A stretch of DNA of 64,000 nucleotides, from assembly GCF_053078305.1 (NCBI RefSeq), contig NZ_CP166879.1; one strand, given 5' to 3'. Shown here piece after piece: positions 5,520 through 47,714 of the stretch. The stretch's first letter is position 1. Each line of letters begins with the position of its first letter. The notes under the pieces are model-generated. The model did no database searches and was not told the DNA's origin. It saw only the letters and a list, made by a program, of their open reading frames with translations. The translations under genes and the position numbers were made by a program.

Positions 5520-5570
5520 TTTTTTGCAAAAAGGGGTAGATGCAATCGGTTACGCTCTGTATAATGCCGC
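5520..5570 (+). promoter_or_regulatory. guaBA promoter region with candidate PurR-box-like element
   Basis: TATAAT at 5560..5565 about 44 bp upstream of the guaB ATG; weak -35; atgcaatcggttacgc (5540..5555) matches the 16-bp pur-box palindrome at about 11/16. Confidence 0.45.
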
Positions 5571-5608: not shown

Positions 5609-7075
5609 ATGCTACGTATCGCTAAAGAAGCTCTGACGTTTGACGACGTTCTCCTCGTTCCTGCTCATTCTACTGTTCTGCCGAATACTGCTGACCTCAG
5701 CACCCAGCTGACGAAAACTATTCGTCTGAATATCCCTATGCTTTCCGCAGCAATGGATACCGTAACGGAAGCGCGCCTGGCTATTGCTCTGGCTCAGGAA
5801 GGCGGTATCGGCTTTATCCACAAAAACATGTCCATTGAACGCCAGGCAGAAGAAGTTCGCCGTGTGAAAAAACACGAATCTGGCGTGGTGACTGATCCGC
5901 AGACTGTTCTGCCAACCACGACGCTGCGCGAAGTGAAAGAACTGACCGAGCGTAACGGTTTTGCGGGCTATCCGGTCGTTACCGAAGAAAACGAACTGGT
6001 GGGTATTATCACCGGTCGTGACGTGCGTTTTGTTACCGACCTGAACCAGCCGGTTAGCGTTTACATGACGCCGAAAGAGCGTCTGGTCACCGTGCGTGAA
6101 GGTGAAGCCCGTGAAGTGGTGCTGGCAAAAATGCACGAAAAACGCGTTGAAAAAGCGCTGGTGGTTGATGACGAATTCCACCTGATCGGCATGATCACCG
6201 TGAAAGATTTCCAGAAAGCGGAACGTAAACCGAACGCCTGTAAAGACGAGCAAGGCCGTCTGCGTGTTGGTGCTGCAGTTGGCGCAGGTGCGGGTAACGA
6301 AGAGCGTGTTGACGCGCTGGTTGCCGCTGGCGTTGACGTTCTGCTGATCGACTCCTCCCACGGTCACTCAGAAGGCGTTTTGCAGCGTATCCGTGAAACC
6401 CGTGCTAAATATCCGGATCTGCAAATCATCGGCGGCAACGTGGCAACAGCTGCAGGTGCACGCGCTCTGGCAGAAGCTGGTTGCAGCGCGGTTAAAGTCG
6501 GTATCGGCCCTGGTTCTATCTGTACGACTCGTATCGTTACTGGCGTAGGTGTTCCGCAGATCACTGCCGTTGCTGACGCAGTTGAAGCCCTGGAAGGCAC
6601 CGGTATTCCGGTTATCGCAGATGGTGGTATTCGCTTCTCCGGCGACATCGCCAAAGCTATCGCCGCTGGCGCAAGCGCGGTGATGGTAGGTTCCATGCTG
6701 GCGGGTACTGAAGAATCTCCGGGTGAAATCGAACTCTACCAGGGCCGTTCTTACAAATCTTACCGTGGTATGGGTTCCCTGGGCGCGATGTCCAAAGGTT
6801 CCTCTGACCGTTATTTCCAGAGCGATAACGCTGCCGACAAACTGGTGCCGGAAGGTATCGAAGGTCGCGTAGCTTATAAAGGTCGCCTGAAAGAGATCAT
6901 TCACCAGCAGATGGGCGGCCTGCGCTCCTGTATGGGTTTGACCGGCTGTGGTACTATCGACGAACTGCGTACTAAAGCGGAGTTTGTACGTATCAGCGGT
7001 GCGGGCATTCAGGAAAGCCACGTTCACGACGTGACCATTACTAAAGAGTCCCCGAACTACCGTCTGGGCTCCTGA
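5609..7075 (+). CDS. guaB: IMP dehydrogenase
   Basis: 488 aa from ATG 5609 ([21 protein letters not shown]...), CBS and catalytic GSICTT motif; track ORF is N-extended to 5540. Confidence 0.96.
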
Positions 7076-7082
7076 TTCTCTT

Positions 7083-7103
7083 CGCCCGACTTCATGTCGG
7101 GCG
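7083..7103 (+). other. GC hairpin in guaB-guaA spacer
   Basis: cgcccgac ttcat gtcgggcg inverted repeat followed by atttatatt; possible intra-operon attenuator or RNA processing site. Confidence 0.3.
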
Positions 7104-7143
7104 ATTTATATTATCTGTTTCACTTGCCTCGGAATAAGCGTCA

Positions 7144-8721
7144 ATGACGGAAAACATTCATAAGCATCGCATCCTCATTCTGGACTTCGGTTCTCAGTAC
7201 ACTCAACTGGTTGCGCGCCGCGTGCGTGAGCTGGGTGTTTACTGCGAACTGTGGGCGTGGGATGTGACAGAAGCACAAATTCGTGACTTCAATCCAAGCG
7301 GCATTATTCTTTCCGGCGGCCCGGAAAGTACTACTGAAGAAAACAGTCCGCGTGCGCCGCAGTATGTCTTTGAAGCAGGCGTACCGGTATTCGGCGTTTG
7401 CTATGGCATGCAGACCATGGCAATGCAGTTGGGCGGTCACGTTGAAGCCTCTAACGAACGTGAATTTGGCTACGCGCAGGTTGAAGTCGTAAACGACAGC
7501 GCACTGGTTCGCGGTATCGAAGATGCGCTGACCGCAGACGGTAAACCGCTGCTCGATGTCTGGATGAGCCACGGCGATAAAGTTACCGCTATCCCGTCCG
7601 ACTTCGTCACCGTAGCCAGCACCGAAAGCTGCCCGTTTGCCATTATGGCTAACGAAGAAAAACGCTTCTATGGCGTACAGTTCCACCCGGAAGTGACTCA
7701 CACCCGCCAGGGTATGCGCATGCTGGAGCGTTTTGTGCGTGATATCTGCCAGTGTGAAGCCCTGTGGACGCCAGCGAAAATTATCGACGATGCTGTAGCT
7801 CGCATCCGCGAGCAGGTAGGCGACGATAAAGTCATCCTCGGCCTCTCTGGTGGTGTGGATTCCTCCGTAACCGCAATGCTGCTGCACCGCGCTATCGGTA
7901 AAAACCTGACTTGCGTATTCGTCGACAACGGCCTGCTGCGTCTCAACGAAGCAGAGCAGGTTCTGGATATGTTTGGCGATCACTTTGGTCTTAACATTGT
8001 TCACGTACCGGCAGAAGATCGCTTCCTGTCAGCGCTGGCTGGCGAAAACGATCCGGAAGCAAAACGTAAAATCATCGGTCGCGTTTTCGTTGAAGTATTC
8101 GATGAAGAAGCGCTGAAACTGGAAGACGTGAAGTGGCTGGCACAGGGCACCATCTACCCTGACGTTATCGAATCTGCGGCGTCTGCAACCGGTAAAGCAC
8201 ACGTCATCAAATCTCACCACAACGTGGGCGGCCTGCCGAAAGAGATGAAGATGGGCCTGGTTGAACCGCTGAAAGAGCTGTTCAAAGACGAAGTGCGTAA
8301 GATTGGTCTGGAGCTGGGTCTACCGTACGACATGCTGTACCGTCACCCGTTCCCGGGACCAGGCCTTGGCGTTCGTGTTCTGGGTGAAGTGAAGAAAGAG
8401 TACTGTGACCTGCTGCGCCGTGCTGACGCCATCTTCATTGAAGAACTGCGTAAAGCGGATCTGTACGACAAAGTCAGCCAGGCGTTCACCGTCTTCCTGC
8501 CAGTACGTTCCGTTGGCGTAATGGGCGATGGTCGTAAGTATGACTGGGTTGTCTCTCTGCGTGCTGTCGAAACCATCGACTTTATGACCGCACACTGGGC
8601 GCATCTGCCGTACGATTTCCTCGGTCGCGTTTCCAACCGCATTATCAATGAAGTGAACGGTATTTCCCGCGTGGTGTATGACATCAGCGGCAAGCCGCCA
8701 GCTACCATTGAGTGGGAGTGA
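7144..8721 (+). CDS. guaA: GMP synthase (glutamine-hydrolysing)
   Basis: 525 aa, class-I GATase N-terminus, [10 protein letters not shown]-loop. Confidence 0.96.
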
Positions 8722-8761
8722 GGCTATTATTTAAACTATTGTTTTATTTGATTTAGTGAGT

Positions 8762-8800
8762 GCCATTGATGATATTGACTGCATTATCAATGGCATTTTT
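8762..8800 (+). terminator. AT-rich hairpin plus T-run downstream of guaA
   Basis: gccattgat (8762..8770) pairs with atcaatggc (8786..8794), followed by attttt. Confidence 0.4.
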
Positions 8801-9105
8801 CATGGTATAAGGCCGACGCTGAATCGAAGATATAGCAAATACCATGTGACTGTATCAGCAAATGCCATGGTATCGACAACCGGGGGCATTGCAGCGCTGT
8901 GCTGATGCCATCGATGCCCGCTTTTAGTCAGAACACTCTCTCGACCCAAGCCTCCAGATCCTTAAATATGCGCCAGAGGAGCACCTCGTGATCGAAATTA
9001 TGAACAAGACAGCCGCCGCTCGGAATCGAAGTCTCCATATGGGTGAATAAGGTTTGCGGAAAACACGCTGAGAAAATAGAAAAGCGTCAATGAAGGGACA
9101 TAGCA

Positions 9106-10386
9106 ATGGCGATTAACGGAGTGGACGGTGTTAGCGCAGTCACCGTGGATGAACTACTCAAGCAAGGCCTTCGGATACCGAACTATCAACGCCCATACAG
9201 TTGGGAAGTATCGACCGCTCTACAACTGGTGGATGATCTCAGCGAAGCTCTTCGAGATACCGAAAGAAAAGATATTCCCTATGTTTTGGGTGCAATCATT
9301 CTTCACGATGATGGTGAGTATCTCAATGTAGTCGACGGACAGCAACGTCTGCTGACTTTGCGAATGATTCTTGCGGCCTTAGATCCGATAAATCACCAAA
9401 TTTCGGTGTCTGGTAACAGAGAAACCTCTGTCTCCCTGGTTTGGATAGAGCTTCAAAGGCGCCTGTCGCAGTTGGAAGATAAAAAAGAATTTTTGGATTT
9501 TATCTGTCACAAATGTCAGTTGGTGCGTATTGTGACGGACGATATTGATGAGGCATTCCGTGTCTTTGATTCCCAGAACTATCGCGGCAAACCGCTTGCC
9601 CCTCATGACTTGCTCAAAGCACACCACCTGCGCGAAATGCACGATGAGTCCGCTGCTATGAAAGTGGCTGTCGTTGAGGCTTGGGAAGCCGTAAATGATG
9701 AGGATCTGGACAGGCTTTTTTCTACTTTTTTATACCGGATATCCAAGTGGTCACGAGGAGAAAGCTCGCTCGAATTTGCTATTCGGGACATCGGTATGTT
9801 CAAGGGAATTTCATCACGATCCCACAGATCATTTTCGCCAAATCTGCGATATCACCTTGCAGCACAAGCCGCTATGCCACTTCTAAGTGCATGGGCGGTG
9901 TCCTCGACACATGATGCTCGAAATGCCGGGCGCAGCCGCTTTCAGCTTGATGCCCCGATAATCGCTGGGCGCTCATTTTTCGAGATGGTGGCATTCATGC
10001 TTGACGAATTGAAGATACTGGAAAAAGAGGTTATCGACAAAGGTTTCAAAAACTTTGGCCCATCTCAAAGTCGCTACCGCTACGTGTACGAATTGTTCAT
10101 TGCCGCTCTGCTTTGCTATACAAACAAGTTTGGCGATGAAGATGTGGATGAAGTGCGAAATAGGTTATTCGCATGGGCATATGCCTTGCGGGTCGAGTTA
10201 CTTCGTGTGCAATTTGTATCTGCTGACAACCGAGCTCGAGGTAAAAACGATGCAAATAAATCGCCTTTTGTTTTGCTACGCAACGCGATGACTGGAAGTG
10301 TTGTCCGCAAACTTCCAATAGCAAGTCAGCCATACAACGATAACCACGAAAAGGAACTCATTGCTTTTATCAAGGGGCTGCAATGA
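9106..10386 (+). CDS. DUF262 (ParB/Srx-like NTPase, GmrS-like) protein; accessory gene A
   Basis: 426 aa; IPNYQRPYSW motif and DGQQR (nt 9334..9348); later FRVFDSQNYRGKPL motif; no HNH/His-Me motif seen in the C-terminal ~270 aa; ATG 9106 with GGGA RBS; stop overlaps the next start (ATGA at 10383..10386). Confidence 0.8.
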   Translation: MAINGVDGVSAVTVDELLKQGLRIPNYQRPYSWEVSTALQLVDDLSEALRDTERKDIPYVLGAIILHDDGEYLNVVDGQQRLLTLRMILAALDPINHQISVSGNRETSVSLVWIELQRRLSQLEDKKEFLDFICHKCQLVRIVTDDIDEAFRVFDSQNYRGKPLAPHDLLKAHHLREMHDESAAMKVAVVEAWEAVNDEDLDRLFSTFLYRISKWSRGESSLEFAIRDIGMFKGISSRSHRSFSPNLRYHLAAQAAMPLLSAWAVSSTHDARNAGRSRFQLDAPIIAGRSFFEMVAFMLDELKILEKEVIDKGFKNFGPSQSRYRYVYELFIAALLCYTNKFGDEDVDEVRNRLFAWAYALRVELLRVQFVSADNRARGKNDANKSPFVLLRNAMTGSVVRKLPIASQPYNDNHEKELIAFIKGLQ

Positions 10387-12335
10387 GCAAGAAGGAGTTG
10401 AAACCCGAACTGCTAACAGTAGGCAAGCTATTCACGGACAATTATCTGATTCCTATTTATCAACGGAACTATGCTTGGCGGGCCGAACAGATTGAGCAAC
10501 TTATCAGCGATATTCAAGACTCGGTTGTTGGGGGCCAGGACGACTATTTTCTTGGAAACCTTGTTGTAATCAAGCGGGGTAGAGAGGACGAGTTCGAGGT
10601 CATAGATGGACAACAACGACTTACAACCCTCTATCTGCTTCTGACCTTCCTGGAGCAAGACGGTGAGGGTGGGAAGCCGTCGATTGGCCATGCAGGCCAC
10701 TTGCAATATGAGTCGCGTGCACGGGCAACGGAAGCCCTGCGGCGAGTAGCACAGGAGGCGGCTAAGGGGCACGTCCGACCGCAGGGCTCCACGAGTAATG
10801 CAGATGCTGGCATCCATGAAGGCTACAGCATCATCAATCAGTTCTTCAAACAAAATGAAACCCTTAATTGCTCACGCGAAAAATTCTCCGATTTCTTGCT
10901 AACGAAGGTTACTGTCGTCCGTGCCTCGCTGCCACCCAATACAGATCTCAATCGCTACTTCGAGATCATGAACACTCGTGGGCAGCAACTCAAGCAGGTT
11001 GATATTGTTAAGGCTCGCCTGATGAGCAAGCTGCCCAATCAATATGAACGCGAATGCTTCGCCTGGGTTTGGGATGCCTGTGCTGAGATGGATTCTTATG
11101 TCCAGATGTCTCTGACCCGTGGTGACACCAGTTTGCGAAACAAAGTATTTGGCGATGAATGGTCCTGGCTGGAGGTGACCAGCTTCGCGTCGTTAATGGA
11201 AAGTCGTCCGCAATCCGGCATCAATTCTTCAAGGCAATCCTCCGAAGGGGTATCGTTGTCCTTGGATGAGGCGTTGTCAAAATACGCTAAAGAGATCGAG
11301 TCAAATTCCACTGAAGACGAGGGCAACGAGCGGTTTCGTTCGACTATTGAGTTTCCGGCCTTTCTGCTACACGTTCTAAGAATTATGAAAGGCGATGAGG
11401 TCGAAGACGAAGGCCAGCTTGACGACAAACGCCTCATCAAGTCATTTGACGACGCTGTAAATAATGTACCCGATGCTAAAGCCGATTGGGTGCGTAACTT
11501 TACATTCATGCTCCTCAAGTGCCGCAACCTCTTCGATGGCTTCATTTTGAAGCGTCAATTCACGGCGAACATCGGTGACGATGGCGATTGGTCTCTCCAG
11601 CGATTGAAGAAAGGCGGCGCGGACAAGAAGCCAACCCCGACGTATATCCATGTTTTCTCGGCCAGCAATGGAAACTTAGAGGAGGACGGCGGTGCTGACC
11701 CACATACCCGAGATGTATTGCTGCTTCAGTCCATGCTTCGGATAACCTACACTTCTCCGCGAACGATGCACTGGATTACCAAAGTTCTTCGCTGGCTATC
11801 CGTCAAAGCCCCTCAAGACGCGAAACATGCGGATCTTGCCGATTTGTTGAAGGGGTATGCCCGCAGCAAGGTCAAAGAGACATTCCCCTTTGAGGAAGAT
11901 CAGCAACCACAAGGGTTTGGTATCAGCCGCATCGTCTTTTCGTATCTCGACTATCTTCTGTTGAGCGATTCCTCAAAACGAGATTTCAAATTTCAGTTCA
12001 GAACTTCCATTGAGCACTTTTATCCACAGCATCCGGACAAAGAACAGTCGGGCGCGGTTGTTTCAGGTTCTAGCCTTAACCTGCTTGGCAACCTTGCGCT
12101 CGTAAGCGTCAGCGCGAACTCAAAATTCAGCAATAGCCTTCCCAGAGCGAAGGCCGAAAACTTCAAGGATACGATTGAACTTCAAAGTCCCAAGCTCAAG
12201 AGAATGGCGGAAATCACTCGAAATACAAGCTGGGACGATCAGCAGATAACAGCTCATCATGAAGAGATGGTGACATTGCTTCGTGATGATGTAAGTCTGG
12301 TGGAGGCAAGCGGAAGATCCTACCCGGGGCGTTGA
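10383..12335 (+). CDS. DUF262-DUF1524 protein (GmrSD/SspE/BrxU-family type IV restriction endonuclease-like); accessory gene B
   Basis: 650 aa; N-terminal IPIYQRNYAW plus DGQQR (10605..10619) plus FEIMNTRGQQL; C-terminal His-Me finger motifs SIEHFYPQHP (12009..12038) and NLLGNLALVSVSANSKFSN (about 12072..12128). Confidence 0.85.
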   Translation: MSKKELKPELLTVGKLFTDNYLIPIYQRNYAWRAEQIEQLISDIQDSVVGGQDDYFLGNLVVIKRGREDEFEVIDGQQRLTTLYLLLTFLEQDGEGGKPSIGHAGHLQYESRARATEALRRVAQEAAKGHVRPQGSTSNADAGIHEGYSIINQFFKQNETLNCSREKFSDFLLTKVTVVRASLPPNTDLNRYFEIMNTRGQQLKQVDIVKARLMSKLPNQYERECFAWVWDACAEMDSYVQMSLTRGDTSLRNKVFGDEWSWLEVTSFASLMESRPQSGINSSRQSSEGVSLSLDEALSKYAKEIESNSTEDEGNERFRSTIEFPAFLLHVLRIMKGDEVEDEGQLDDKRLIKSFDDAVNNVPDAKADWVRNFTFMLLKCRNLFDGFILKRQFTANIGDDGDWSLQRLKKGGADKKPTPTYIHVFSASNGNLEEDGGADPHTRDVLLLQSMLRITYTSPRTMHWITKVLRWLSVKAPQDAKHADLADLLKGYARSKVKETFPFEEDQQPQGFGISRIVFSYLDYLLLSDSSKRDFKFQFRTSIEHFYPQHPDKEQSGAVVSGSSLNLLGNLALVSVSANSKFSNSLPRAKAENFKDTIELQSPKLKRMAEITRNTSWDDQQITAHHEEMVTLLRDDVSLVEASGRSYPGR

Positions 12336-12553
12336 CTTCTTTGAATAACCGCTTTTGGACGAATGTCCCTTGTGGAGTGCAAGTTGTCAGTTTAAAAGTG
12401 TTTTGCGTCGGGCGACACGATCAGTACAGCTCCCAGGTTTTTTTACCATGGTATTTTGTGTGGTATCGACATGCAAAGATAATGCTATTTTGTTGATTTT
12501 ATAGTGTTTTAAGGCGGCATTGATCATCGAGTGGGAATAAACCCTGTACATAT

Positions 12554-21306: not shown

Positions 21307-22361
<1,055 letters not shown>

Positions 22362-22406
22362 TTACTTGCGGTAGAAAAATAAAATTCGGCGCAATTCTAA
22401 CAGGGA

Positions 22407-22422
22407 AAGCAAACGTTTGCGA
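22407..22422 (-). promoter_or_regulatory. PurR operator (pur box) of purMN
   Basis: Minus strand reads TCGCAAACGTTTGCTT, near-perfect ACGCAAACGTTTTCNT-type palindrome, about 70 bp upstream of the purM start. Confidence 0.75.
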
Positions 22423-23379: not shown

Positions 23380-24669
23380 ATGACGCGCCGTGCTATCGGG
23401 GTGAGTGAAAGACCGCCACTTTTACAGACAATCCCGCTTAGTTTGCAACATTTGTTCGCCATGTTTGGTGCAACCGTCCTGGTGCCCGTCTTATTTCATA
23501 TTAACCCGGCGACTGTACTGTTATTTAACGGTATTGGAACGCTGCTGTATCTCTTCATCTGTAAAGGGAAAATTCCGGCTTATCTTGGTTCCAGCTTTGC
23601 CTTTATTTCACCGGTATTGCTGCTGTTGCCGTTGGGGTATGAAGTCGCGCTGGGCGGCTTTATTATGTGCGGCGTGCTGTTTTGCCTGGTTTCTTTTATC
23701 GTGAAGAAAGCGGGGACCGGCTGGCTGGACGTGCTGTTTCCACCTGCGGCAATGGGCGCAATCGTTGCCGTCATCGGTCTGGAGCTGGCGGGCGTAGCTG
23801 CCGGTATGGCGGGTTTACTCCCGGCTGAAGGGCAAACGCCAGACTCCAAAACCATCATCATCTCTATTACCACCCTGGCGGTCACGGTTTTAGGTTCCGT
23901 GCTGTTCCGTGGTTTCCTGGCAATTATCCCGATTTTAATTGGCGTGCTGGTGGGGTACGCGCTCTCTTTCGCAATGGGAATTGTCGATACCACGCCGATT
24001 ATTAATGCTCACTGGTTTGCGCTGCCAACCCTCTATACGCCGCGCTTCGAGTGGTTTGCCATTCTGACTATTCTGCCAGCGGCGTTAGTGGTTATTGCCG
24101 AACACGTAGGGCACCTGGTAGTAACGGCTAATATCGTCAAAAAAGATCTGCTGCGCGATCCAGGTCTGCACCGTTCGATGTTTGCTAACGGCTTGTCGAC
24201 CGTGATTTCCGGCTTCTTTGGCTCCACGCCAAACACCACCTACGGGGAAAACATTGGCGTGATGGCGATCACCCGTGTTTACAGTACCTGGGTTATCGGC
24301 GGGGCGGCGATTTTCGCTATCCTGCTTTCCTGCGTCGGTAAACTGGCTGCCGCTATCCAGATGATCCCATTGCCGGTGATGGGCGGCGTTTCGCTGCTGC
24401 TTTATGGTGTCATCGGTGCTTCCGGTATTCGTGTTTTGATCGAATCGAAAGTGGATTACAACAAAGCACAGAACCTGATCCTGACTTCCGTGATTTTGAT
24501 CATCGGCGTCAGTGGCGCGAAGGTAAACATCGGCGCGGCGGAGTTGAAAGGTATGGCGCTGGCGACCATCGTCGGTATCGGCTTAAGTTTGATTTTCAAA
24601 CTGATCAGTGTGCTGCGCCCTGAAGAAGTGGTGCTGGACGCAGAAGACGCGGATATAACAGACAAATAA
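23380..24669 (+). CDS. uraA: uracil:H+ symporter
   Basis: 429 aa from ATG 23380 ([24 protein letters not shown]...), polytopic NCS2-family sequence. Confidence 0.95.
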
Positions 24670-27658: not shown

Positions 27659-28720
27659 ATGCTCGAAATGTTGATGCAATGGTATCGCCGCCGTTTTAGC
27701 GACCCGGAAGCGATTGCCTTGCTGGTTATTTTAGTTGCCGGATTTGGCATTATCTTTTTCTTTAGTGGCCTGCTTGCTCCGTTGCTGGTGGCTATTGTGC
27801 TGGCCTATTTGCTGGAATGGCCAACCGTGCGCCTGCAATCTATTGGCTGCTCCCGCCGCTGGGCGACGTCGATTGTATTGGTGGTTTTCGTCGGTATATT
27901 GCTACTGATGGCGTTCGTGGTACTGCCTATCGCCTGGCAACAGGGCATCTACTTAATCCGCGATATGCCGGGGATGCTCAATAAGCTTTCTGACTTTGCC
28001 GCCACGTTGCCGCGCCGCTATCCGGCGTTAATGGACGCGGGCATTATTGATGCAATGGCCGAAAATATGCGCAGTCGGATGCTGACCATGGGCGATTCGG
28101 TGGTGAAAATTTCCCTCGCCTCGCTGGTCGGTTTGCTGACCATTGCCGTCTATCTGGTGCTGGTGCCATTGATGGTCTTCTTCCTGCTGAAAGACAAAGA
28201 GCAGATGCTGAATGCCGTTCGCCGGGTGCTGCCGCGTAACCGTGGGCTGGCAGGACAGGTGTGGAAGGAGATGAATCAACAAATCACCAACTATATCCGC
28301 GGCAAAGTGCTGGAGATGATCGTGGTGGGGATCGCCACCTGGCTGGGGTTCTTGCTCTTTGGGCTGAACTATTCGCTGCTGCTGGCGGTGCTGGTCGGCT
28401 TCTCGGTACTTATTCCGTACATTGGCGCATTTGTGGTGACCATTCCTGTGGTTGGCGTGGCGCTATTCCAGTTTGGTGCAGGCACGGAATTCTGGAGCTG
28501 CTTCGCAGTGTATCTGATTATTCAGGCGCTGGACGGTAATCTGTTAGTACCGGTGTTGTTCTCCGAAGCGGTTAACCTGCATCCGCTGGTGATTATTTTA
28601 TCGGTGGTGATCTTCGGTGGTTTGTGGGGATTCTGGGGCGTATTCTTCGCCATTCCATTGGCGACGCTGATCAAAGCCGTGATCCACGCCTGGCCCGATG
28701 GTCAAATAGCGCAAGAATAA
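27659..28720 (+). CDS. perM: AI-2E family transporter / permease PerM
   Basis: 353 aa polytopic membrane protein recognised as YfgO/PerM. Confidence 0.9.
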   Translation: MLEMLMQWYRRRFSDPEAIALLVILVAGFGIIFFFSGLLAPLLVAIVLAYLLEWPTVRLQSIGCSRRWATSIVLVVFVGILLLMAFVVLPIAWQQGIYLIRDMPGMLNKLSDFAATLPRRYPALMDAGIIDAMAENMRSRMLTMGDSVVKISLASLVGLLTIAVYLVLVPLMVFFLLKDKEQMLNAVRRVLPRNRGLAGQVWKEMNQQITNYIRGKVLEMIVVGIATWLGFLLFGLNYSLLLAVLVGFSVLIPYIGAFVVTIPVVGVALFQFGAGTEFWSCFAVYLIIQALDGNLLVPVLFSEAVNLHPLVIILSVVIFGGLWGFWGVFFAIPLATLIKAVIHAWPDGQIAQE

Positions 28721-44722: not shown

Positions 44723-45757
44723 ATGGCTTACTCTGTTCAAAAGTCGCGCCTGGCAAAGGTTGCGGGTGTTTCGCTTGTTTTATTACTCGCTGCCTGTAGT
44801 TCTGACTCACGCTATAAGCGTCAGGTCAGTGGTGATGAAGCCTACCTGGAAGCGGCACCGCTTGCGGAGCTTCATGCCCCGGCTGGAATGATTTTGCCGG
44901 TGACCTCCGGTGATTATGCAATCCCGGTGACCAACGGTAGTGGTGCTGTCGGTAAGGCGCTGGACATTCGTCCACCAGCCCAGCCGCTGGCACTGGTTTC
45001 TGGCGCGCGTACCCAGTTCACGGGCGATACCGCTTCATTGCTGGTGGAAAATGGTCGTGGCAATACTCTGTGGCCGCAGGTGGTTAGCGTGCTGCAGGCG
45101 AAAAACTACACCATCACCCAACGTGATGATGCCGGTCAGACACTGACCACCGATTGGGTACAATGGAACCGTCTGGACGAAGACGAGCAGTATCGTGGTC
45201 GTTATCAAATCTCTGTTAAGCCGCAGGGTTATCAGCAGGCGGTTACGGTTAAACTGCTGAACCTGGAACAGGCGGGCAAACCGGTTGCAGACGCGGCTTC
45301 CATGCAGCGTTACAGCACGGAGATGATGAACGTTATTTCCGCTGGTCTGGATAAATCTGCCACTGACGCCGCGAACGCTGCGCAAAATCGTGCCTCCACC
45401 ACTATGGACGTACAAAGTGCAGCTGATGACACCGGTTTACCAATGCTGGTCGTACGCGGGCCGTTCAATGTGGTTTGGCAACGTCTGCCAGCGGCGCTGG
45501 AAAAAGTGGGCATGAAAGTGACCGACAGCACCCGTTCGCAGGGTAACATGGCCGTAACTTATAAGCCGCTGTCTGACAGCGACTGGCAGGAACTGGGCGC
45601 GAGCGATCCAGGCCTGGCATCCGGTGACTATAAACTGCAGGTTGGTGATTTAGATAACCGCAGCAGCCTACAGTTCATCGATCCGAAAGGTCATACTCTG
45701 ACTCAGAGTCAGAACGACGCGCTGGTAGCTGTCTTCCAGGCTGCGTTTAGCAAGTAA
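44723..45757 (+). CDS. bamC: BamC (NlpB), outer-membrane protein assembly lipoprotein
   Basis: 344 aa from ATG 44723, lipobox LLAACSS. Confidence 0.95.
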
Positions 45758-45762
45758 AAATA

Positions 45763-45790
45763 CAGGGCTGGAATCATCCGGCCCTTTTTT
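45763..45790 (+). terminator. rho-independent terminator after bamC
   Basis: cagggctgg aatcat ccggccct followed by T6. Confidence 0.65.
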
Positions 45791-45800
45791 CTGATATGAC

Positions 45801-45816
45801 ACGCAAACGTGTGCGT
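45801..45816 (+). promoter_or_regulatory. PurR operator (pur box) upstream of purC
   Basis: ACGCAAACGTGTGCGT, 14/16 palindromic match to the pur-box consensus. Confidence 0.7.
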
Positions 45817-45869
45817 CGGCAGGAAAACGCGATTTTAGCGGTAATTCGCACGAAATTTGTTTGTCGGAC

Positions 45870-45906
<37 letters not shown>

Positions 45907-45969
45907 ACATCCGGCACACCAGACAGCAAAAGATTTTAAAACGTTAATTCACACCCAGGAGTGATAAAG

Positions 45970-46683
45970 ATGCAAAAGCAAGCTGAGTTGTATCGTGGTA
46001 AAGCGAAAACCGTATACAGCACGGAAAACCCGGACCTGTTGGTGCTCGAATTCCGCAATGATACGTCAGCAGGGGATGGCGCGCGCATTGAGCAGTTTGA
46101 TCGCAAAGGTATGGTGAACAACAAGTTCAACTACTTCATTATGAGCAAACTGGCTGAAGCGGGTATCCCGACTCAAATGGAGCGTCTGCTCTCCGATACC
46201 GAATGTCTGGTGAAAAAGCTGGATATGGTACCGGTTGAGTGTGTCGTGCGTAACCGTGCTGCAGGCTCTCTGGTGAAACGTCTTGGAATCGAAGAAGGTA
46301 TTGAGCTGAACCCGCCGCTGTTCGATCTGTTTCTGAAAAACGACGCCATGCACGATCCGATGGTCAACGAATCTTACTGCGAAACCTTTGGCTGGGTAAG
46401 CAAAGAGAACCTGGCGCGTATGAAAGAGCTGACCTACAAAGCGAACGACGTGCTGAAAAAACTGTTCGATGATGCTGGTCTGATTCTGGTCGACTTCAAG
46501 CTGGAATTTGGTCTGTACAAAGGCGAAGTGGTACTGGGTGATGAGTTCTCCCCGGACGGTAGCCGCCTGTGGGACAAAGAAACGCTGGAGAAAATGGACA
46601 AAGACCGTTTCCGCCAGAGCCTCGGTGGCCTGATCGAAGCCTATGAAGCCGTCGCCCGCCGCCTGGGTGTACAGCTGGACTGA
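45970..46683 (+). CDS. purC: SAICAR synthetase
   Basis: 237 aa from ATG 45970 ([17 protein letters not shown]...). Confidence 0.96.
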
Positions 46684-46699
46684 TTTTTCTGTTCATCAT

Positions 46700-46724
46700 C
46701 TTGCCGTGCTGCTGGCACGGCAAG
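46700..46724. other. perfect 10-bp palindrome just downstream of purC
   Basis: cttgccgtgc tgctg gcacggcaag; no adjacent U-tract on either strand. Confidence 0.4.
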
Positions 46725-46850
46725 ACAACCATTCTCGTAAGATGTGCATTGAACGCTCATTCCTCCGCCATTTCATCCCGCTTTCCTGTGGTAATCTTCC
46801 TCTGAACCACCTACGATCATTTCTATAATGAATATATTGTTGAGGTATCT

Positions 46851-47714
46851 ATGCGTTGGCAAGGGCGACGTGAAAGTGACAATGTTGAAGACAGGCGCAA
46901 TAGCTCCGGTGGTCCGTCAATGGGCGGTCCCGGTTTCCGTCTGCCGAGCGGTAAAGGCGGGCTGATTTTACTGATAGTCGTGTTGGTTGCAGGCTACTAT
47001 GGCGTTGATTTAACCGGGTTGATGACCGGGCAGCCGGTTTCTCAACAGCAATCAACGCGGTCAATTAGCCCAAATGAAGACGAAGCCGCAAAATTCACCT
47101 CGGTGATTCTGGCAACCACGGAAGACACCTGGGGACAACAGTTCGAGAAGATGGGTAAGACCTATCAGCAACCGAAGCTGGTCATGTACCGTGGAATGAC
47201 GCGTACCGGATGCGGGGCGGGCCAGTCCATAATGGGGCCGTTCTATTGCCCGGCGGATGGCACGGTTTATATCGATCTCTCCTTCTATGATGACATGAAA
47301 GACAAACTTGGCGCGGATGGCGATTTTGCCCAGGGGTACGTTATCGCCCATGAAGTCGGTCATCATGTGCAGAAACTGTTAGGCATCGAGCCGAAAGTTC
47401 GTCAACTGCAACAAAACGCGACGCAGGCGGAAGTGAACCGCTTATCTGTGCGTATGGAACTCCAGGCCGACTGTTTTGCCGGTGTCTGGGGGCATAGTAT
47501 GCAGCAGCAAGGCGTTCTGGAAACCGGCGATCTGGAAGAGGCGCTGAACGCGGCGCAGGCCATCGGCGATGACCGTTTACAACAGCAAAGTCAGGGGCGA
47601 GTAGTACCAGACAGTTTCACTCATGGCACTTCTCAGCAACGCTACAGCTGGTTTAAACGTGGTTTCGACAGCGGCGATCCGGCACAATGCAATACTTTTG
47701 GTAAAAGCATTTAA
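46851..47714 (+). CDS. ypfJ: YpfJ, putative zinc metallopeptidase-family protein
   Basis: 287 aa, N-terminal TM segment, HEVGHH zinc motif. Confidence 0.9.

Follow-up and report, generated by a model that had tools for sequence, protein, structure and literature searches.

The PUR boxes at purMN, purC and guaBA in the DNA analyzed here are almost certainly operators of PurR, a LacI/GalR-family dimer, and each of them overlaps a core promoter. These operators are already known, and for the window itself (the whole stretch of 64,000 nucleotides) the finding carries little weight: these are three textbook operators of the purine regulon, recognizable from sequence. What the analysis adds is (i) an explanation of the purC geometry by a transcription start inside the operator and a lineage-specific insertion in the leader; (ii) further PurR-type sites in the window; and (iii) a class of purC loci in which a box abuts the stop codon. 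This 3'-operator class, found in relatives, is the one item worth follow-up, and it is apparently undescribed. The three operators of the window are as follows.

22407..22422, minus strand: purMN PurR operator (PUR box) TCGCAAACGTTTGCTT, spanning -35..-20 of the purM promoter
45801..45816, plus strand: purC PurR operator ACGCAAACGTGTGCGT, spanning -6..+10, with the transcription start inside the box
5540..5555, plus strand: guaBA PurR operator ATGCAATCGGTTACGC (weak), spanning -32..-17 of PguaB

The source of the window is an E. coli chromosome: the 2-kb piece around the finding at 22407-22422 is at least 95% identical to 5,424 of the 5,426 complete E. coli genomes (best 99.9%). The strain is not K-12, and the nearest complete genome compared is 99.2-99.3% identical over 62 kb. 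Annotation transfer from the closest records gives the gene order xseA, guaBA, an island, ppx-ppk, purN-purM (minus strand), upp-uraA-hda, bepA, yfgO, the hyf operon, gcvR-bcp, dapA-bamC-purC, ypfJ and, further on, tkt-tal. Compared to the PurR regulon of K-12, genes and gene order are alike, and over 51 nt the purM and guaB promoter contexts show 0 mismatches. The purC promoter differs from that of K-12 by T>C at -7 and by T>G 2 nt past the box, the box itself being unchanged. In the closest reference strain, two DUF262-domain genes lie between guaA and yfgI (7595-10824 of that locus, corresponding to about 9000-12400 of the window); this region looks like a strain-variable island, possibly related to defense.

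The pur genes as well as guaBA are controlled by PurR, for which hypoxanthine and guanine serve as corepressors (2024 review, PMC10912719), and Meng 1990 and He 1990 are cited in later literature for repression by PurR. According to Cho 2011 (PMC3159470), PurR sites generally lie between -35 and -10, adenine represses the purine biosynthesis genes, and PurR roadblocks exist inside purB and purR. The purMN and guaBA boxes occupy this canonical repressing position between -35 and -10. In the proposed mechanism, PurR activated by hypoxanthine or guanine would sit on the box and keep RNA polymerase from initiating. At purMN, it would cover the -35 hexamer and the spacer (-35..-20); at guaBA, where the box is weaker, it would cover -32..-17; and at purC, it would cover the transcription start (-6..+10); the probable extended -10 element upstream of this box directly adjoins the bamC terminator. 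We infer steric occlusion as the mechanism and take the K-12 results to be transferable to the strain of the window.

For scoring, we built a position weight matrix (PWM) from the 24 motifs of Cho 2011 Table 1 (PMC3159470) that lie outside the window; the test is not circular, because none of the training sites comes from the window. Ranking all 128,000 positions of the window, the scan proposed in the preliminary description placed the three boxes first, third and fourth.

purC box: 18.8 bits, rank 1, 0.04 equally good matches expected per window
purMN box: 16.9 bits, rank 3, 0.12 equally good matches expected per window
guaBA box: 15.1 bits, rank 4, 0.35 equally good matches expected per window

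All three p-values are below 1e-4, the cut-off of Cho 2011 (PMC3159470), and all three scores are inside the range of the leave-one-out scores of the 24 training sites (5.3 to 25.2 bits). With the consensus ACGCAAACGTTTGCGT and up to 3 mismatches, there are 3 matches in the window, where 0.56 would be expected, and a count of 3 is not attained in any of 100 shuffles; the purC box has 1 mismatch, the purMN box 2, and the guaBA box keeps the central CG. Under a first-order Markov null, the distribution is somewhat broader, with a window maximum of 15.3 ± 2.1 bits and a 95th percentile of 19.1. Sequence by itself is suggestive, more convincingly so for purC and purMN than for guaBA, and the case rests on position and published data. 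The published comparison is direct: the three 16-mers are letter-for-letter the ChIP-chip motifs of Cho 2011, the documented PurR operators. The preliminary description had graded the purMN and purC boxes as strong and the guaB match as weaker, in agreement with both the PWM scores and the ChIP values (a maximal 2.08 for both purC and purMN versus 0.84 for guaBA).

Transcription starts were taken from Kim 2012 Table S1 (PMC3415461), where they are experimentally derived and each is given with a 51-nt context, by which it was located in the window. Consensus promoter scans around the three boxes missed the purC, purM and guaB promoters, and called only the upp promoter and a match on the xseA side. 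Since none of the three promoters was called, their core elements were deduced from the mapped starts.

At purMN, AAGCAAACGTTTGCGA on the plus strand at 22407-22422 reads TCGCAAACGTTTGCTT on the strand of purM, which is identical to the purM-purN motif of Cho 2011 (PMC3159470), with a ChIP log2 value of 2.08 with adenine and 0.98 without. A strong box at these coordinates on the minus strand had been described beforehand, and both its position and its strength (16.9 bits) are correct; control of purMN by PurR, which had been proposed on this basis, is already established, and the box is identical to the K-12 ChIP-chip motif. In the promoter listed next, both the -35 hexamer and the spacer lie under the box.

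22394-22399, minus strand: -10 hexamer TAGAAT of purM (sequence reading)
22387, minus strand: purM transcription start (Kim 2012 context, 0 mismatches to the window)

The purM leader is 44 nt long and ends at the GTG start codon at 22343. The same box was also considered as a regulator of upp and rejected, because relative to the upp start it occupies -224..-209.

At guaBA, the 16-mer ATGCAATCGGTTACGC is the reverse complement of the guaB-guaA motif GCGTAACCGATTGCAT of Cho 2011 (PMC3159470), for which the ChIP value is 0.84 and was obtained only with adenine. Control of guaBA by PurR, considered possible beforehand, is already established, and the box, though weak, is identical to the K-12 ChIP-chip motif. 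The match had also been said to overlap the -35 region of guaB; the mapped start puts it at -32..-17, over the 3' half of the -35 hexamer and the spacer, and the guaB literature describes a putative PurR site overlapping the core promoter.

5560-5565, plus strand: -10 hexamer TATAAT of PguaB
5572, plus strand: guaB transcription start (Kim 2012), followed by a 37-nt leader to the ATG at 5609

Alternatively, the guaB match could be due to chance, without direct action of PurR at PguaB, the purine effects being exerted via DnaA, CRP, Fis and growth-rate control. On sequence alone, the match has no window-wide significance, with 0.35 equally good sites expected per window, and a matrix of the 12 classic operators gives it only 11.2 bits, with 2.1 such matches expected. 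No site in the ChIP table has a weaker signal, the literature labels the guaB site 'putative', and several other regulators are found at PguaB. Nevertheless, the ChIP-chip peak with adenine centers on the motif, and the box occupies the canonical repressing position. Once the search is restricted to the promoter of ~100 bp, the chance expectation is ~5e-4 (arithmetic from the per-site p-value), and the match is significant. In addition, the guaB literature refers to Meng 1990 and Davies & Drabble 1996 for down-regulation of guaB by PurR. We consider the chance explanation unlikely, and retain the guaBA box as a PurR operator.

The purC box combines the highest score in the window with an unusual position. 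The 16-mer ACGCAAACGTGTGCGT is the reverse complement of the purC motif ACGCACACGTTTGCGT of Cho 2011 (PMC3159470; ChIP 2.08 with adenine and 1.52 without). PurR control of purC, too, is already established, and the strong box described at 45801..45816 stands exactly there, with 18.8 bits and rank 1. The following features describe its surroundings.

45764..45792, plus strand: bamC intrinsic terminator (hairpin and T-run; terminator scan), directly upstream of the purC promoter
45792..45800, plus strand: probable extended -10 element TGaTATGAc of purC, at -15..-7 (TGATATGAT in K-12)
45807, plus strand: purC transcription start (Kim 2012), the seventh base of the box
45807..45969, plus strand: purC 5' leader of 163 nt, from the Kim 2012 start to the ATG at 45970
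45852..45954, plus strand: Escherichia-specific insertion of about 103 nt (cross-genus alignment)
45840-45851 and 45943-45954: imperfect 12-bp direct repeat, GGTAATTCGCAC and GTTAATTCACAC, flanking the insertion
45860-45906: REP-like hairpin in the insertion (inverted repeats and fold)

The box ends 153 nt before the ATG, and its center is about 161 nt away, so the earlier figure of about 155 bp was fair. From this distance, the preliminary description had derived either a long leader or a distal operator. The long leader stands and the distal operator does not: the published start at position 7 of the box gives a 5' UTR of 163 nt, and the 5' end, as known from K-12, lies inside the box and not upstream of it. 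Judging by its spacing to the mapped start, TGaTATGAc is probably the purC -10 element, that is, an extended -10 made of TGn and a TATAAT-like hexamer. The bamC terminator, the hairpin of which is kept across genera, sits where the -35 element of purC would be.

The purC box is also conserved. The 16-mer is identical in about 30 species, and in an alignment of ten genera it is the sole invariant block from the bamC terminator to the Shine-Dalgarno sequence, whereas its flanks diverge. This invariance is an independent phylogenetic footprint. An upstream box of at least 14 bits occurs in 44 of 80 purC loci, compared to 3 of 80 when the purC coding sequence serves as control. Escherichia, Citrobacter, Kluyvera and Pluralibacter have a -10-like hexamer upstream of the box; Enterobacter, Leclercia, Phytobacter and Pseudescherichia have it 5-7 nt downstream. 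The comparison suggests that the core promoter of purC may have moved around a fixed operator.

The operator is far from the purC ATG because the insertion of ~103 nt, which is confined to Escherichia, lengthens the leader. In the alignment, E. coli and E. albertii have the insertion, whereas Citrobacter, Enterobacter, Leclercia, Phytobacter, Pluralibacter, Pseudescherichia and Siccibacter lack it. The distance from box to ATG is 152-153 nt in E. coli and E. albertii, and 49-60 nt, with an identical 16-mer, in Citrobacter, Enterobacter, Leclercia, Phytobacter, Pluralibacter, Pseudocitrobacter and others. The sequence of the direct repeat is present as a single copy in Citrobacter, and the repeat looks like a target-site duplication, which is not expected for REP elements. 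The hairpin at 45860-45906 may belong to the REP type by its resemblance to the REP consensus; the K-12 RefSeq record has no repeat feature annotated at this hairpin. A riboswitch or other known RNA in the leader was considered and rejected: the Rfam scan of the leader found no family at threshold and no riboswitch, the match to the REP-derived naRNA4 is sub-threshold (30.9 bits versus a gathering score of 59.5; E 7.5e-4), and the fold is unremarkable compared to shuffles (z-score -1.6).

It is very improbable that the purC box is a distal operator placed ~150 bp upstream of a gene-proximal promoter, and acting remotely or on bamC termination. Such an arrangement would account for the 153 nt between box and ATG, and no sigma-70 consensus promoter was called in 45500-46100. 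However, the mapped 5' end falls at position 7 of the box, the extended -10 (TGnTATGAT in K-12) is exactly at -15..-7, and in other genera only some 50 nt separate this box from the ATG. Moreover, looping is not expected of PurR, because PurR is a dimer without the tetramerization domain of LacI. The purC box is therefore retained as a promoter-overlapping operator.

That all three boxes are chance palindromes without any regulatory role is hardly worth entertaining: the Markov null does leave no single score overwhelming, but three purine-nucleotide operons have three of the top four PWM matches in their core promoters, the same sequences are bound in vivo in K-12 (published ChIP-chip data, which already refute this reading), and the purC box shows no change across genera, unlike its flanks.

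The base adjoining the purC box carries a rare allele. The 51 nt leading up to the purC start differ from K-12 in a single base, T>C at -7 (45800). The exact 41-mer of the window at 45781-45821 occurs in 0 of 5,426 complete E. coli genomes, and with a 41-mer chosen to leave out the common polymorphism at 45818, exact matches with the C allele are obtained in 6 of these 5,426. Three carriers of the C allele were examined, and these represent at least two other sequence backgrounds; one of them, compared regionally, is about 98.1-98.7% identical to the window, versus 99.3% for a strain with the T allele. An artefact peculiar to the window is thus rejected, as six complete genomes, in at least two other backgrounds, carry the C. 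The allele may weaken the purC promoter, since the T at -7 is among the two best-conserved bases of a -10 element, or the start mapped in K-12 may not be kept here. In C-allele strains from cattle and human, a vapBC toxin-antitoxin pair lies between purC and ypfJ (locus positions 7064-7689); it is absent from the window and from K-12.

Boxes at the opposite end of purC were found in other Enterobacterales. We compared purC loci from 80 species, including 65 Enterobacterales and 15 non-Enterobacterales. Among the 65 Enterobacterales, 44 have the upstream box only, whereas 21 are without an upstream box (best score below 13 bits in 900 nt) and have a box of 16-24 bits just 3' of purC; at a threshold of at least 14 bits, none of the 65 has both boxes or neither. 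The 15 non-Enterobacterales loci have neither the upstream nor the 3' box. Species with a 3' box include Yersinia, Photorhabdus, Proteus, Pectobacterium, Brenneria, Budvicia and Rahnella, as well as Cedecea neteri, Mangrovibacter and Shimwellia, the last of which has a degenerate upstream copy in addition to its 3' box. The 3' box is located between the purC stop codon and the terminator (locus positions about 1612-1700). In 18 of the 21 loci, the layout is the last codon, TAA, two variable bases, the box, and a strong hairpin with a T-run; in Rahnella and Rouxiella, the spacer from stop codon to box is 22-26 nt.

Three other explanations of the 3' boxes were rejected. The boxes are neither promoter elements of ypfJ nor the result of an inversion of purC: the two classes share the bamC>purC>ypfJ order, the purC stop codon keeps its box even if ypfJ is missing or a convergent gene comes next, and a terminator follows the box directly. 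Two horizontally exchanged purC alleles are rejected because the purC tree agrees with taxonomy. On this tree, the 5'/3' state needs at least 9 changes. The 5' boxes vary by lineage in sequence and distance, whereas the 3' box has one position. No remnant of a 3' box was found in E. coli, the best score in 46601-46900 being 2.2 bits. This pattern fits an old 3' site that may have been repeatedly replaced by new 5' sites, with the two kinds of site being functionally interchangeable.

Taken further, the purC operator would be mobile, the E. coli box would be a derived replacement, and PurR bound at the 3' box would act as a roadblock that gives rise to non-stop mRNA. We offer this scheme tentatively, and regard it as somewhat more probably wrong than right. 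Only polymerases coming straight from the transcription of purC would run into the 3' box, and PurR bound there would halt RNA polymerase before the purC stop codon is transcribed; the stop codon would remain untranscribed under the block because the spacer is only 2 nt. Repression would then consist of non-stop purC mRNA and tmRNA-tagged PurC. For LacI, Abo 2000, as cited in PMC3711431, is the source for binding at O3, at the 3' end of lacI, leading to truncated transcripts and SsrA-tagged LacI. A 2026 preprint describes transcript release and trans-translation at a blocked polymerase, with ~24 nt from a dCas9 block to the active site. The lacI case and the purC 3' boxes of other Enterobacterales are alike in having a LacI-family operator at a stop codon. 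They would differ in that LacI at O3 regulates its own gene and requires O1-O3 looping, whereas the purC 3' box, by analogy, would serve an enzyme gene through a single dimer site. No description of 3'-roadblock repression of purC was found in the literature searched, which is not proof of absence. If the scheme is true, this would be a natural case of metabolite-controlled repression via non-stop mRNA and trans-translation, and a clean example of operator turnover between the opposite ends of a gene.

Other PurR-type sites were found in the window. The sites in hda (25291, 12.5 bits) and hyfD (38195, 14.5 bits) were rejected, as they are at chance level (0.5-1.4 expected) and are not in the ChIP table. 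The remaining two are as follows.

27704..27719, plus strand: PurR ChIP motif CCGGAAGCGATTGCCT of yfgO/bepA (yfgC), an exact match to Cho 2011 Table 1
23756-23771, minus strand: PurR-like site ACGGCAACGATTGCGC inside uraA, predicted by the PWM (18.3 bits, rank 2)

The yfgO/bepA site is the fourth documented PurR site of the window, and was missing from the preliminary description. It scores 14.0 bits and has a ChIP value of 1.18 (yfgO/yfgC), with adenine only (Cho 2011; PMC3159470). It should be noted that this motif falls within the yfgO coding sequence (+81..+96, counted from the proximal yfgO start), whereas Cho 2011 (PMC3159470) calls the binding regions intergenic. The uraA site is 376 nt into the gene and is one base off the yieG operator, which is strongly bound in ChIP; it has no ChIP peak of its own in Cho 2011 (PMC3159470). 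In the same study, uraA is down 17.6-fold with adenine and shows a ~2-fold change in the purR deletion, described as 'direct or indirect'. By its placement, the uraA site is a possible candidate for a roadblock of the purB type. The purB and purR roadblock operators (Cho 2011) are intragenic and downstream of the promoter, as are the yfgO ChIP site and the predicted uraA site; unlike these roadblock operators, the three boxes at purMN, purC and guaBA overlap their promoters.
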